Shown: piece by piece, positions 6,001-12,000 of the stretch | Position numbering within the stretch: the stretch's first letter is position 1 | Layout: each line of letters starts with the position of its first letter | Virus record (IMG/VR): IMGVR_UViG_2609460344_000006 | Span: 1-12,509 of that record | Length of the DNA: 12,509 nucleotides | From: a virus | Lineage: Duplodnaviria; Heunggongvirae; Uroviricota; Caudoviricetes | Reading direction: 5' to 3' (one strand) | Position numbers: made by a program

Positions 6001-9000
6001 CTTTAACCCTGGCGGTCTTCGCCGAATAACCGGCGGCAATGGCTGACGCTGTTTTGTTTTTCCCGGACATGAGCGCCAGCGCAAATTTTCGTTTTTGCGT
6101 TGTCAGCACAGCCTCCTCCCGGGTCCAGAACGCACTCAGCCGGGTATGGTTCAGCCCATTTTTCCCGGCGTCTCATGCCGCAAATGTTAACTGCTGCCTG
6201 GTTAACATTTTCTGAAAAAGCCAGTTAACATTTTTTTTCGCACAACAAACTGAATAATAAAGATAAAAACCGCAAAAATGCCCGGACAGCCAGTTAACAT
6301 GTTAACTGGCCTGAAACGGGAATTTTTTCTCTGCGTGAGAGGGGGCGCGGTGTCCGGAGCGATCGTTTTTTACGCCGAATGATACCCCCCCCCGGTCGGG
6401 TTACAGTCCGATGATGTCGTCCGCTCTGCCACTACCTCCGGACACCTCCGGCAGCGTCGGGTCCGGCATACCACCCGCCGCTTCACGAGCAGACTTTTGT
6501 CGATGGCATTCGGTACAGAGCGTCCAGAGATTCGTCTCCTCATTACCACCACCGAACTGAAGTGCAATTCGGTGATCGAGTTCACTGTCACAGAGGCCAA
6601 CCACACGACCACAGAGACGGCACTGCCCGGCGTCCCTGAGCCAGATATGACGCTTGAGGGAAACACGTGCACTGCCACTGACACGACGCTGTTAACCCTT
6701 CAAAATATTCACCCGTCGGGTATTCAGTGTTTTGATTCTGCTCTGGAGTGTACGAAGCTCAGCCATGTAAAATCCCCGTCATATGGCAATCAGTAAAGGA
6801 AATAAATATGTCATCGAAAAACCGGACCCGCAGAACCACAACCCGCAATATCCGTTTCCCCAATCACATAATTGAACAGATCAACATCGCCCTTGAGCAT
6901 AAAGGGTCCGGTAACTTTTCAGCGTGGGTTATTGAAGCCTGCAGGAGAAGGCTGGCAACAGATGCAACGCATCTGCGCCCGGCCAGCATGACAAATAACG
7001 AGAAATGAACGTTCGGTTTCTTCCACCATCGCACCGGACAGGCGACTATGAGGGGACAACGCCGCGCTCCGTTAACGCGGTAAACCCCGGTGTGTATCGT
7101 TTTTGATTATCCCCGCACACTCACGCAGAAGGAGTTCCCCGTCGGGCTACGGTCATGGTTAATGCGGGAATACAGCGACGATACAGCGCATGATGTGTCA
7201 GGCTTGAATACCTTTATCCGTTAAAAAGGATATCAGTTAAGTTATCCCGTGCAGGGTATAAGCCATTATCAAGCCCACCAGTAGATGGGCTTTGTAATGG
7301 CTACTTCGCTTTTGCTTCCGCTCGCTTACGCCGGCGCTTTTCTTTCTTCTCGGCTTTTGCCATGTCCATGAATGCCTGCATGATCGAGTTCCGCATCATG
7401 TAGCTGACAAAGTGATGATTGACACAGCCGTTGAGGCGCAACTGCTCGCCAAACTCATCCACCGAGGCCAATGCTTCCATCACGCCCTTCTCGCCTTTCA
7501 TGAACGCTGAGAAGTCGCGCCCCGCTCTGGAGGCGCATTCAATGACACGATCACGCATCCCGGAAGCCCGGGGATTGTGATCTGCAACTGGTTAGCCAGG
7601 GAGTTAATCTCAGCGATCAAACCAGGTTTCGTGTAGCGCCATGCCGCAAGGACTTGCCCGCAGAAGCTCGCCATATCTTTTTTCTGATCAAACTCATGAC
7701 ACTTCATATTGAGCTGCGCACTTAAGCTGTTGCGATGCTGAAGTTCTCCGGTGAAGTAGTCATCCAGGACTTTATAGGCTGCATATTTAAATCCGGGGTT
7801 TAGCCATGTTGCATAATCATAAGCAACAAACTTCCCGCCATATGTTCCACCGTGTACACCGCGCTCAGTAAAAACCACAGATTCGTGGTTTTTCTCCAGC
7901 TCGGCTAAGAACTCTTTGGTCTGCTTGTTTCGCAGGTAGTGGTACGGAGATTCAGATTCACTTTTACCACTGGCTTTCCACATATCAGTGAGGCAGATCA
8001 TGCCATCTTCAGCGACACGGATTGGCTGATTGAAGAGGGTTAATGATTTCATGTCGTATACCTGTTCTTTGAAATGAACCTTTGCCGCATAGGAAACCAG
8101 CCCACCGAGGCTCGCCAGCACTAACGGGTATCCTCAAAGGCCCATTCCAAAGGGTCAGGTTCGGTGGTTATTGTGCGCTGCGGTGCGCGGTGAAATATCT
8201 GTACAAAAATGCCCCGCATCTGCGAGGCTTTTAGCATGTGGAAAAGGTAGTTTATCGTCGCTCTTCAAGATAAGGATCTATGTTGCTAACTTTTTTGTAC
8301 TTCGGATCCTGCGGTAGTCGAACGGCGGGATCATATACAAGCCATATAGATTCAGACTTGCCATCTGAACCATCTGTGTTTTTACATGAGCGTAACTTGT
8401 AATGAATGATTCTATCTACGTCAGCGTACTCGGAGGTTGCATAAACTTCATATTTATTATCTCCGTGGCAAAGAATAGTTTTAACTAATTTTGTAGATGA
8501 CATGTCTGCTCCTTTGTAATTGATGGGTATGACATATGACCACCAATAACAGTGCCATATTTCTGGTGATTATTGCAGCAACGAAATTACAAGCCCACCC
8601 GTAGATGGGCTTTGTAATGGAGAGTCGTTGTGAAAGTGGCTCTCAGACTGTCATTTTTTCCCTTTCTGTTTACCTGCCCACTGTTTTGCAATGTACAGGC
8701 AGTCATCGAAAATTCGGCCTTTTCTGCTGGCTTGTGAACAACGACGATAATGCTCTACGGCCATATCGGCACCCATTAAGGCGACATTGGGATCATATCC
8801 CTGTTTCACTAGGACGCTTTTCACATTACAGTGGATGAATTGGATCGGGTTCATGCCGACTCTCCATCAGGAAAGTCTCCTAGATCAGGAATTGATAATT
8901 GGGTCAATTGCAAGGCAATCTCTGTAGCTTTCTTGATCAATTTAATGTCACGCTTACGCTGTGCCATCAAACCACTACCTTTTTTCCCGCGATATTTGAG

Positions 9001-12000
9001 AGACTTTTTGTCAAACACATCTATCGCATCAAGCATTTTTTGCCCCGCAAGCTGCGGCAATGTCTCTAGATTCAAATGCCCAACCTCAACACCAGACTCT
9101 CTTTCGGCCAAATCAAGAAGCCAGATACGAAGCTCTTTAGCTATCTTGGTTCGCGACATCATGCCAATAAGGTGCGCCCCTCGAGGAGAAAACAATCGAA
9201 CCTGAGTGTAATCTATCATGCTGTTTTTATTACACTTCCTCACTTTGGTCACAATTGTCATGCTATCTGTAAACTCATCTTTATGACGATTGTAGATATT
9301 GGAAACCTTATTTGAATTCGCATAACCAAGCAGATCTGCCAATGCCTCAGCGGTAAACCAAATCTTCCCATCACCATTATCAAATGGAATCACGGTATTG
9401 TTTTTGAACGTCAGTTCGTTCATTGAGCGTACTCCTATAGAAATGAGCCTCGTTGCCCAGAAACGCCGCCCGCAGAGAGGTCGCCACCTATAACGACGGT
9501 TCTCCAAGGCTCATTTCTGTAAGGCTCTGCGATTTACATGCGCCGGGCATGGCGCAGATATAAAAAAACCACCAACGCGGTAAGCGCCAGTGGCTTATTG
9601 ATACAGCCTCAAATTAATTGCCAGCACCGAGGTACCCACCCACAGAAGTTTCCCCTCGTTTTGGGGTGAGCTAGTCAACATTTGCACTCCCCAGTTTTGG
9701 GGAGCTCAAACGTTCAACGATGATGCTGCAGATGCGTTCATACCGGCTTTACCTTTTAGTGATGAACCTTGTCACACAGGATTCCGGCCCACAGAAAGGC
9801 ACCGATCACCAAACCGGCATCCTCAAGGGTCATCCTGAAAGGTTCTGTGTTAATAAGTCGCGCGTGTGAAGCGCATTTACTGAGGACATAAAAAAGCCCC
9901 GCTTCTGCGAGGCATTTTCCTGAAAGTCACTTGTTAAATTTCAGTGAAGTTAAAATTATTTTAAGCACTGAGTCCTGATGTACTCCTGCAGGTAGTTAAC
10001 CTGCGCGGTTATCTTGTCGATTCCACTTCGGAGACGGTAATAATTGAGTTCAGCATCTGCTGTAAGTCTTGGGCTTTCTCCATCGCCCATGCTGCTGGCT
10101 CCGGTAGTTGACTTTGCACAGGTGGCGGCGACTTGCAGGCGCTTACGCCCAGCAGAAACATCAGCACGGAGACTTTCAATAGTCGCGTTAGCATCAGCAA
10201 GCTCCTTTGTGTATCTGGTGTCAAGTTCTGCTACATCACGTTGCCGCTTCTGCATATCAGCGATGATGGATGTGGCTTTATCGCGCTGCGCTTTGTAGGT
10301 AATCGCGTTATCACGGTAATGGTCTGTTGCCATCCACAGCGCACCACAGGCCACCAGCAGAATAACGATAAACGCGGAAAGCATTCGGTTTATGTTCACC
10401 CCAGCAACCCCGACGAAGACAACATCATCCAGGCCATGGAAAGAAAAAGAGCAACCAGCATTAGTGAAAATGAAATGCCGACAATTACACAGAGGATCTT
10501 CGCCAGCGTTATGAGTTTGTCTGACATGCTTAATCCTCCCTTCACGATTTCAACGCAATGACCAGTTTTGCCAGCCCATACAGCATCGGGGACACAGCAA
10601 CACCGACCGCCACCCACTTAATGGCAAAAGCCAGTGCTCTGCTGATGTCATCAGTTACAGGCGCTTTCAGTTCAAGGCCATTTTTCATAGTCAACCTCAA
10701 CAGAATTCGTTTATACTTCGCCATGTTCTCCCTTGCCTTACTCAAGGTCAGAAACACAAAACCCCGCTTGGTGCCAACAAACGGGGTTTTTACTTTTATT
10801 CACTTACGTTTCGCCAGTTCGCAGGATTTCGTGTTATCCGCCCGCGTGGCCATACCTTATTTTTCAGCAAAATATTCTGCTTATCTGTCGATTCCCCAGC
10901 ACGCCAGCGCGCTCTCCTGGTCACGACGGGATACCTGACCATAACAGTTATTTGAGCGGATACGGCAGTCTCTGCCACCGTCCTTAATCCACCAGCGAAT
11001 CGCCTCACACGCTCCCCTGCGATCACCTGCATTAATTCGTTTATAAAACGTCGACGGGAAACACTTACCGGGACCAATGTTGTACGGACAGAATGACGCG
11101 ATCCCCGCTTTCTGGGGTTCACTCAATGGCACTCTGATGTTTTTCTCCACCCATGCCAGCGCCTTATCACGCTCAATGGCGTTAACCCGGTCGCATTTTT
11201 CCTTCGACAACTTCATGCCCGGAACGACAGGTTTGCCATCCACCAGGATGGCACCGCGGCAGATGGTCCAGATACCCGCGCCATCACGGTATGCCGTGGT
11301 GTGGTTACCTTCCTTTTCATCCAGAAACTGGTCGAGGATTTCAGGCGCAGGCGCACCTGCGGCAATCAGCGCCAGAACGGCAGCCGACAGGCCGTATTTG
11401 ATTTTGGTGTTCATGGATATTTATCAGGGTTTATCGATTTCAAATCCCTGGATATGTTAAGTCTTCAGGCCAGCGGTGGAGTCTTCAGAGAACCAGTAAT
11501 TATTCCCGGTAGTTTTCCTCTGTAGGTTATCAACACATCCTGCGCCTCTAAAATTACGGGGCGCTTTTCCGGCAACGGACCATCCCCTTCACATAACCCG
11601 GCAGCAACATCCATGAAAAACTGCTTCGCCTGCTTTTTCGCCTCAGCTTCGTAAAACTCCAGCGTGGCATCTTCAGTACGGTCAAGACTAATCGCCACAT
11701 CTGGCAACAACAGTGACGGATACCCACCAATTTCCAGTGCCACAGTAACAGTAATCTTATTCGGGTAATTATTTATCCCTTTAACAACCAGTTCGTATTT
11801 TTTCTTCATCGCTTTACTCTCCCCGCGCCGCCTTACGACGGTCCTCTCTGATTTTGAAATACAGGTTAGTCAGATATGTCAGCAGCCCAAACAGCAGACT
11901 CCCCAGTACGCCTATTGCCGCCCACTGAGACGGGGAAACCCTGTCCAGCAACTGCAGGAACCAGTAGCCCGTTCCCACCGCTGACGTGGTGTATGACACA

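Follow-up and report, generated by a model that had tools for sequence, protein, structure and literature searches.

The late region of a lambdoid prophage, represented by IMG/VR virus record IMGVR_UViG_2609460344_000006 (Caudoviricetes; positions 1–12,509, a stretch of 12,509 nucleotides (nt) hereafter called the window), carries between its lysis and packaging genes a Bro-N domain gene and genes for small proteins of 67 and 83 amino acids (aa). We read this locus, with a probability of about 0.6, as a tandem array of independently exchangeable cassettes that constitutes a gated regulatory module. The array runs A / Bro-N, 67-aa / B / 83-aa / A′ / KilA-N, 85-aa / B′, where the letters stand for repeated hairpins. 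A preliminary description of this DNA had treated the three genes as a single cluster; instead, they fall into two independent cassettes, each found alone elsewhere, and a third (KilA-N and 85-aa) lies directly next to them. The two cassettes are composed as follows:

Cassette 1 (~9600–8590): terminator, small GC hairpin, ~110-nt leader, Bro-N gene, ATGA-coupled 67-aa gene and hairpin B.
Cassette 2 (8620–8205): the 83-aa gene, flanked by hairpin B and terminator A′.

These cassettes are absent from most sister prophages and recombine at boundary elements that they have in common; among these is a structured RNA that is conserved. When the 5′ regions of Bro-N and Rha-like genes were aligned, a conserved block of ~110 nt extending to the ribosome-binding site was found whatever protein domain follows, with compensatory changes visible by eye. 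A covariance model of this leader (R2), built from three hand-checked seed sequences and iterated to 25 sequences, matches the window at three positions only, each on the minus strand:

9743–9851 (−): leader copy 1, an orphan; R2 score 86.1 bits, E 2e-17; followed by an 11-codon remnant open reading frame (ORF) at 9706–9741.
9424–9533 (−): leader copy 2, directly 5′ of the Bro-N start codon; R2 score 105.7 bits, E 4e-22.
8057–8162 (−): leader copy 3, 5′ of the KilA-N gene in the rha position; R2 score 74.6 bits, E 1.4e-14.

The remnant ORF behind copy 1 (MNASAASSLNV) resembles the MNKSL.. start of Rha-like genes. Copy 2 folds with a minimum free energy of −41.2 kcal/mol (z-score −2.6), and its outer stem is identical to an inverted repeat (I5) from the repeat scan; here, G101 and G102 of the GGAG ribosome-binding site are paired. 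Copy 3 folds with −45.5 kcal/mol (z −3.7), and its ribosome-binding site CAGGU is paired to ACCUG. According to folding prediction, the outermost helix takes in the ribosome-binding site in all three window copies, and the consensus pairs AAAGG with CCUUU. On the 5′ side of each copy come an intrinsic terminator, a conserved stretch similar to CAGTAAA, and a small hairpin of the form GCGC..GCGC.

The leader is a conserved RNA structure of the sense strand. In 55 sources, 49 leader matches were found, every one of them on the gene-sense strand. Covariation statistics over 42 distinct leader sequences gave 92.9% paired cells, in comparison to 74.3% in shuffles (none of 500 attained the observed value) and 35–51% when the partners were slid, and both sides had changed in 33 of the 35 leader pairs. 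An independent RNAalifold calculation on the alignment again gave the long, irregular hairpin, and 28 of its 29 pairs are compensatory; a plain MAFFT alignment of the leaders, in which the arms were shifted against each other, gave no structure with RNAalifold. There are 143 G.U pairs and 44 A.C pairs, an excess that is expected of an RNA with the gene-sense orientation. The compensatory changes, the G.U excess, and the strict sense orientation thus indicate selection on the RNA fold. No Rfam family matched anywhere in the window on either strand (cmscan, E ≤ 1), and the known prophage small RNAs AgvB, AsxR, StxS, Pas, STnc100, C4, and IsrK were tried as candidates in the same scan without any match. 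Pas small RNAs map upstream of the holin gene, unlike the window leader (bioRxiv 10.64898/2026.05.13.724894).

The leader family is widespread. The block of copy 1 is 93–98% conserved in P22-like and Shiga-toxin (Stx) phages and likewise in more than 1,000 E. coli genomes, and a BLAST search with the copy-1 type alone found it in 305 phage records and a matching sequence in more than 1,200 E. coli genomes. In 80 of 80 related loci, the leader occupies the same place 5′ of the KilA-N gene; in the Stx phages Min27, PA2, and P13374, it stands ahead of the late ant gene, which these phages carry between R and Rz, and it also occurs 5′ of Rha-like, KilA-N, HNH/AP2, and TerB-like ORFs. The HNH/AP2 endonuclease-like ORFs with a leader upstream (L167, 613–719; L171, 4489–4594) hint that the leader block is connected with the mobility of the cassettes. 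Phage P22 (NC_002371) contains a single leader match before rha, at 39534–39639 (81.8 bits), and the curated rha start at 39575 falls within it. The first 23 residues of P22 Rha are ~90% identical to an upstream ORF extension in the window, although the downstream domains differ. Since this start lies inside the leader and the peptide is conserved despite differing domains, the conserved "N-terminal peptide" is probably the RNA leader, and the true start of P22 rha is probably the ATG at 39645. The leader, a widespread and covarying RNA family that neither Rfam nor the curated P22 record contains, is new as far as these tools tell.

The leader is embedded in a set of repeated hairpins, which delimit the cassettes:

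9890–9917 (−): intrinsic terminator A, after Rz; 7-bp GC-rich stem with a T-run; −16.1 kcal/mol, z −3.9; repeat partner of 8205–8232.
9566–9596 (−): second intrinsic terminator, 5′ of the Bro-N cassette; 13-bp stem followed by TTTTTTT; −17.9 kcal/mol, z −3.9.
9539–9556 (−): small GCGC(C)..(G)GCGC hairpin or palindrome between terminator and leader; −11.8 kcal/mol.
8590–8620 (−): hairpin B, which closes the Bro-N/67-aa cassette on its 3′ side and is a junction point in related prophages; −20.2 kcal/mol, z −5.6.
8205–8232 (−): intrinsic terminator A′, repeat partner of 9890–9917; −15.4 kcal/mol, z −3.9.
7270–7300 (−): hairpin B′, repeat partner of 8590–8620; −27.2 kcal/mol, z −6.3.

The preliminary description had placed terminator-like hairpins and direct repeats at the flanks of the genes. 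Indeed, all repeats fold into stable hairpins (z −3.9 to −6.3), three of them terminator-like, and two repeat pairs exist, one of 28 nt with 89% identity (8205–8232 and 9890–9917) and one of 31 nt with 97% identity (7270–7300 and 8590–8620). These pairs are interleaved rather than nested. They are not the scars of an insertion but common cassette boundary elements: the similarity of the first pair (A/A′) runs on for ~170 nt, and this extension is the structured leader RNA. Of 5,426 complete E. coli genomes, 319 contain the B/B′ hairpin in its 7270–7300 version. Hairpin B (CCATTACAAAGCCCATCTAC.GGTGGGCTTG.TAAT) has a very stable stem without a clear T-run and is a cassette junction; it is a candidate 3′ stabilizer, terminator, or recombination site.

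The small GC hairpin precedes nearly every leader copy and shows compensatory variants such as GCACC..GGTGC and GCGT..ACGC. In the gaps between terminator and leader (~9855–9889, 9534–9565, and 8163–8204, minus strand, and ~25 equivalent loci), a conserved CAGTAAA-like stretch accompanies a GCGC-N5-7-GCGC palindrome; these may form an additional helix in the RNA, or serve as a protein-binding operator or a promoter element. A scan limited to sigma-70-type promoters found no such site on the minus strand in 9424–9955 or 8504–8620, and its total equalled the chance expectation. A sigma-70 promoter between terminator and leader was also sought by eye; inspection and scan yielded weak candidates only, and none is claimed. 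Between the orphan leader and the next terminator (9597–9742, minus strand), twin CCCCAAAAC..GGGG hairpins (9653–9702) flank a TTGACT, with the strong terminator 9596–9566 following. This stretch is 96% conserved in Edwardsiella hoshinae and may encode a small RNA or be what is left of the 3′ end of a deleted gene.

That the genes are horizontally acquired, variable cargo was borne out by comparison with related prophages. In 80 viral contigs carrying the same KilA-N gene (95–98% amino-acid identity), the Bro-N, 67-aa, and 83-aa genes are present in none. In most of those contigs that show Rz, the distance from Rz to the KilA-N gene is 187–208 nt, in comparison to 1,903 nt in the window, and the late region here is a hot spot for such cargo. 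Only one of the 5,426 E. coli genomes covers the whole cluster. The 83-aa gene occurs in 17 of them, and the Bro-N/67-aa pair in the same single genome and in two others at 68% nucleotide identity. An Edwardsiella hoshinae prophage matches window positions 9846–8696 at 96% identity. Junctions in related prophages coincide with the shared hairpins. In E. coli 042, the 83-aa gene lies alone between Rz and HNH, and the match extends exactly from hairpin B to terminator A′ (8619–8206), where it is joined to B′. In ~12 E. coli-type contigs (L015–L026), the order after Rz is Rha-like gene, 67-aa gene, and hairpin B, the last fused directly to sequence that lies beyond B′ in the window. The same slot holds a ParD-like/RelE-like pair in three sister prophages (L098, 2268–2802; L103, 2142–2802; L153, 2143–2755), and it thus also accepts addiction- or defence-type cargo; in L130, it holds a second KilA-N gene. 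The genes lie between genes that are adjacent in relatives and have a deviant base composition, and they have terminator-like hairpins of their own (9917–9890, 9596–9566, and 8232–8205), all of which are features of morons. As gene cargo, the cluster is an ordinary, if rare, member of the Bro-network/moron class.

In the 5′ to 3′ direction of the minus strand, the genes are ordered as follows:

Holin, YdfR, lysozyme, small ORFs, and Rz/Rz1 (10399–9956).
Bro-N gene (9423–8851), 67-aa gene (8854–8651), and 83-aa gene (8503–8252).
KilA-N + ORF11CD3 gene (8052–7498) and 85-aa gene (7558–7301).
YnfO (the only gene discussed that is on the plus strand), HNH, small and large terminase subunits, capsid, and portal.

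The products of the array are:

8851–9423 (−): Bro-N protein, 190 aa, PF02498, with a conserved ~80-aa C-terminal domain that is also kept under a Rha-like N-terminus.
8651–8854 (−): 67-aa helical protein, PHROG 4439; ATGA overlap; 32 close homologue clusters; AlphaFold2 pLDDT (predicted local distance difference test) 87.9.
8252–8503 (−): 83-aa orphan, PHROG 16949; single-gene cassette; 5 homologue clusters only.
7498–8052 (−): KilA-N + ORF11CD3 protein, 184 aa, in the P22 rha position; PF04383 E 1.2e-15, PF10549 E 2.8e-11.
7301–7558 (−): 85-aa protein, PHROG 875, which travels with the KilA-N gene.

The window is 100% identical to E. coli cM8a (NZ_CM176589), and the three minus-strand ORFs reported earlier agree with the RefSeq calls in that prophage. 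Their AT-richness is likewise evident: the GC content is 0.421 over 8252–9423 and 0.533 over the window, that of the cluster genes is 0.38–0.45 as against 0.50–0.60 in flanking genes, and GC at third codon positions is 0.31–0.47 in the three-gene segment as against 0.51–0.66 in the lysis and packaging genes. Of the position given between Rz and terminase, the first half is right, but four further genes (KilA-N, 85-aa, YnfO, and HNH) intervene before the terminase. The YlcI/YnfO (DUF3950) gene (6748–7008, plus strand) and the HNH endonuclease gene (6370–6684, minus strand) adjoin the small terminase subunit gene; the latter is so named by RefSeq, and no HNH Pfam domain was detected in the 104-aa ORF call. 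The C-terminal part of the window KilA-N protein can be aligned with P22 Rha, and this C-terminal domain is common to both. Residues 83–113 of the KilA-N protein, a short stretch, match the PADLOC defence candidate PDC-S22 with E 1.1e-8.

The Bro-N assignment proved sound (PF02498, 33.5 bits against a gathering cut-off of 25.6, E 6.5e-8, residues 17–103). Pfam gives Bro-N only: no ANT, AntA, P22_AR_N, or P22_AR_C domain was found in the 190-aa protein, nor any nuclease domain, and the "anti-repressor" families of PHROG match the N-terminal part alone. As the preliminary description had stated, the 67-aa gene is translationally coupled, with its start lying within the Bro-N stop codon (..GGAGAGTCGGCATGA.., a 4-nt ATGA overlap). 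The same overlap recurs in ~55 loci of short-form, closest relatives, in which the start of the 67-aa gene overlaps the end of an upstream gene of 190–220 aa. Close relatives of the 67-aa protein (at least 65–70% identical) are always coupled to the conserved C-terminal domain. The N-terminus of the upstream partner swaps between Bro-N and a weakly Rha-like type, while its C-terminal ~80 residues are constant (..S[FL].{3}G.{2}GS.{5}RK..Q...), and both subtypes of the C-terminal domain are found joined to Bro-N (L042, L053, and L058). The stable association is therefore that of the C-terminal domain with the small protein, and this two-gene unit with PHROG 4439 is new as far as these tools tell.

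The 67-aa family comprises 32 close clusters in Enterobacterales and ~100 representative clusters at 50% identity. The Bro-N/67-aa pair follows Rz in the window and in Lonsdalea. In Enterobacter prophages (L003–L005, 5429–6207), a Bro-N/68-aa pair adjoins the cI-type repressor gene where the early-left operon begins, ahead of KilR, GamL, and RecT and ~450 nt downstream of a 98-aa ORF; its differing 5′ region is not recognized by the leader model. About 30 of 98 representatives are long forms with a Lys-rich tail ending in Q-x-[GS]-L-[FL]-COOH (QPGLF, QAGLF, QVSMF, and QGSLL), which resembles the β-clamp-binding motif. These are uncoupled to Bro genes and mostly occupy the interval from cII to the replication genes, or else follow RdgC or RusA; examples are L057, L060, L062, L012, L085, and L078 (gene at ~6001–6260 in each) and P0041–P0142. 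This clamp-motif architecture is also new as far as these tools tell. The window protein is a short form ending in ..AGKQKGKK, and no clamp-binding motif is present at its terminus.

The AlphaFold2 model of the 67-aa protein is a bundle of 3–4 helices. The His and Cys residues pointed out earlier are there, but they are not conserved: a zinc or disulphide site was discarded, as Cys39 and His35 are replaced across the wider family and only an FDDC[LM] motif remains, so they have no metal-site meaning. Ribosome modulation factor was also considered and set aside, since the Pfam RMF match (E 0.063) is below the cut-off and was taken as chance. The 67-aa protein has no sequence similarity to sigma factors, and its fold matches are generic for helical bundles. 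A PDB sequence search with profiles of the 67-aa family and the C-terminal domain returned noise only (E ≥ 0.09), Pfam found no match in 16 C-terminal domains, and a homologue search with this domain alone retrieved 3 fragments only. The 83-aa protein is modelled as a β-meander plus helix (pLDDT 83), and a fold search with this model found no match. A homologue with 68% identity occupies the same post-Rz slot in a phage with unrelated lysis and packaging genes.

Both small proteins had been said to resemble nothing nameable, and this still stands: Pfam, NCBIfam, and PADLOC searches were empty, also with respect to toxin-antitoxin families; PHROGs gave only families of unknown function, and the fold searches were uninformative. 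These profile and structure searches revealed no relative with a known structural or lysis role. PADLOC gave no match at E < 0.01 for the Bro-N, 67-aa, or 83-aa protein, the best being Bro-N against PDC-S05 (E 0.038).

How such an array would be expressed can be proposed from its architecture. In the lambdoid late operon, terminators are read through by Q-modified polymerase. The cassette genes would thus be transcribed late in lytic growth, mainly within the Q-antiterminated late transcript, and the terminators would halt unmodified polymerase in the lysogen. The leader may act as a second lock: with the ribosome-binding site bound up in its long stem, translation would not start before that stem is melted or cleaved. 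RNase III typically cuts long, imperfect stems of about this length (~20 bp), for example in the lambda N leader; by this analogy, RNase III processing is our preferred trigger, though a tentative choice, and upstream ribosomes melting the stem, temperature, or a protein may serve instead. The Bro-N protein would bind DNA or a repressor via its N-terminal domain and carry the 67-aa protein on its C-terminal domain. The pair may then be one regulatory unit of the "Bro network", antirepressor-like or transcription-interfering; a regulatory, antirepressor-like end function is possible but rather doubtful. The pair would be harmful if mis-expressed, and double gating fits proteins of this kind. 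Indeed, P22 rha in the late operon is detrimental without integration host factor, and Rha of P22 and phi80 is reported to be harmful if mis-regulated (PMC4936722). The 83-aa protein would be an unrelated small cytoplasmic late protein. Taken together, the terminator and hairpin architecture argues for silence in the lysogen over a lysogen-expressed function.

Several points weigh against a gated regulatory module. The sigma-70 scan found no promoter belonging to the cassettes themselves. The occlusion of the ribosome-binding site is a folding prediction, and the covariation numbers given above are generous, as the alignments were fitted to the model and the sequences are related. We infer the complex of the C-terminal domain and the 67-aa protein from sequence comparison, and adjacent genes co-inherit anyway; at the junction between L008 and L009, the small gene is accompanied by no more than ~12 codons from the 3′ end of the upstream gene. 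Because the Enterobacter pair stands beside cI without the leader, late-only gating is not intrinsic to the pair. Finally, the label "antirepressor" for Bro-N proteins is mostly an annotation habit (PMC4426718, PMC10111431), and the function of the late ant of Stx phages is just putative (PMC4426718).

The genes may instead be morons expressed in the lysogen, serving superinfection exclusion or abortive infection like the KilA-N protein BstA or toxin-antitoxin modules. The slot would suit them, given the ParD/RelE-like pair that occupies it in sister prophages and the PDC-S22 match in a short stretch of the neighbouring KilA-N protein (E 1.1e-8); the cassettes are AT-rich, each with its own terminator, and the Enterobacter Bro-N/68-aa pair next to cI is in a classic defence slot. 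Yet the three proteins themselves lack a PADLOC match at E < 0.01, are predicted to be soluble, and have no recognized effector domain. No promoter-like site is present between terminator and gene, and the upstream terminator with a hairpin that hides the ribosome-binding site points to silence in the lysogen, which makes this explanation unlikely.

The evidence on the partner domain bears on another explanation, in which the small proteins are anti-defence or host-takeover inhibitors that block host or competitor proteins during lytic growth, and Bro-N is a co-transferred regulator. The 67-aa protein is strictly bound to one partner domain, which suggests a role within the module rather than that of a free inhibitor. 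Small, orphan, fast-evolving, and cytoplasmic proteins are of the typical phage inhibitor kind, the transcription setting is late or early lytic, and the fold of the 83-aa protein is novel and without relatives. However, no likeness to known anti-defence families was found, and the distribution is very narrow; we regard this role as distinctly improbable.

The leader itself could be viewed differently, namely as part of selfish Bro-network units in which the terminator-leader block is a homing or recombination target, conserved by DNA exchange and not by RNA function. Its occurrence 5′ of HNH/AP2 endonuclease-like ORFs (L167 and L171) would agree with this, as would the duplicated leader copies that flank insertions, one of them orphaned with a gene remnant, and the extensive domain swapping documented for the Bro network (PMC10111431). 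However, the Bro-N protein is without a nuclease domain, and the compensatory changes, the preponderance of G.U over A.C, and the strict sense strand are signs of RNA-fold selection, so this account is very improbable, although both roles can coexist. That the two small ORFs are chance frames in AT-rich filler, as their shortness and lack of a Pfam family might suggest, is scarcely credible in view of strong PHROG matches (E 4e-32 and 3e-49), frame and motifs kept in homologues down to 43–60% identity, confident AlphaFold2 models, and a conserved ribosome-binding site and start-codon overlap.

A gated cassette array has several counterparts among known systems. The closest in position is the late-operon rha (Phage_pRha) of P22 and phi80, which also lies after Rz/Rz1 and before the packaging genes. 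P22 rha shares the upstream terminator and leader RNA, and Rha of both phages belongs to the same size class, with a DNA-binding-type N-terminal domain and a swappable C-terminal domain. The window protein differs in having a Bro-N instead of a pRha N-terminus and an unnamed C-terminal domain instead of ORF11CD3, and P22 rha is without the coupled 67-aa partner; the window gene that truly corresponds to P22 rha in position is the KilA-N gene (7498–8052). The late ant of Stx phages (d_ant; 933W, Min27, PA2, P13374, and phi24B) has the same leader family (47–88 bits), encodes ~190 aa, and is situated within or beside the lysis cassette. However, its N-terminus (MNMM.VPFHG..) is of the P22 antirepressor-like type, it has no PHROG 4439 partner gene, and it lies between R and Rz, whereas the window genes follow Rz.

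The lambda N-leader RNase III hairpin, like further leaders in which the ribosome-binding site is sequestered, is a long imperfect stem that extends from a transcription signal to the start codon and includes the ribosome-binding site. The window leader has such a stem but no sequence relation to it. Lambdoid morons (lambda bor and lom; HK97 gp15), a concept of Hendrix and colleagues, are extra genes of deviant composition between genes adjacent in relatives, with a terminator; the window differs in that the sigma-70 scan detected no promoter of its own, and the architecture suggests late lytic expression. Restraint at the RNA level near the ribosome-binding site, which on the window side is predicted, is shared with P22 immI (arc-ant/sar RNA), P1/P7 c4-icd-ant, P4 CI/seqA in eta, and Gifsy-1 IsrK-anrP (PMC12197685, PMC10111431). 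Those loci use trans-acting or antisense small RNAs (Rfam C4, IsrK, and sar), whereas the window has a cis leader hairpin with no Rfam match, and the whole-window cmscan matched no Rfam model of C4/IsrK/sar-type RNAs beside the Bro-N gene. Clamp-tethered phage transcription factors have precedents in T4 gp33/gp55 and Mu C (PMC12867686). The long forms of the 67-aa family resemble them in combining a small helical domain, a Lys-rich linker, and a C-terminal clamp-like motif, but the window protein is a short form without the tail.

A wider proposal, whose two halves are a long shot when taken jointly, is that the leader is an RNA switch class gating all late Bro-network genes (rha, ant, KilA-N, and Bro-N) in lambdoid, P22-like, and Shiga-toxin phages, timing the release of proteins that act on repressors or other prophages, and that PHROG 4439 is a minimal sigma-2-like adaptor. 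Such a switch might sense temperature, the amount of RNase III, or a factor supplied by phage or host. As adaptors, the long forms may reach DNA via the β-clamp motif, and the short forms may dock on a Bro-N or Rha protein; if so, they would be a lambdoid counterpart of the clamp-coupled transcription of T4 (gp55/gp33) and Mu (C).

Rha-like start codons, among them that of P22 orf201, appear to be mis-called inside the leader, which merits an RNA family entry. The pair of the Bro-N C-terminal domain and PHROG 4439, with its clamp-motif relatives, is a small unstudied protein family that offers a testable interaction hypothesis. If the proposed array is correct, the mosaic junctions after lambdoid lysis genes would be cassettes that start with a terminator and a structured leader, and this anatomy would explain both the exchange of the genes and their quietness in the lysogen. 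The leader would then be a handle on when and why rha of P22 and phi80 and the late ant proteins of Stx phages are made, which would matter for how prophages induce one another and for when toxin phages are induced.

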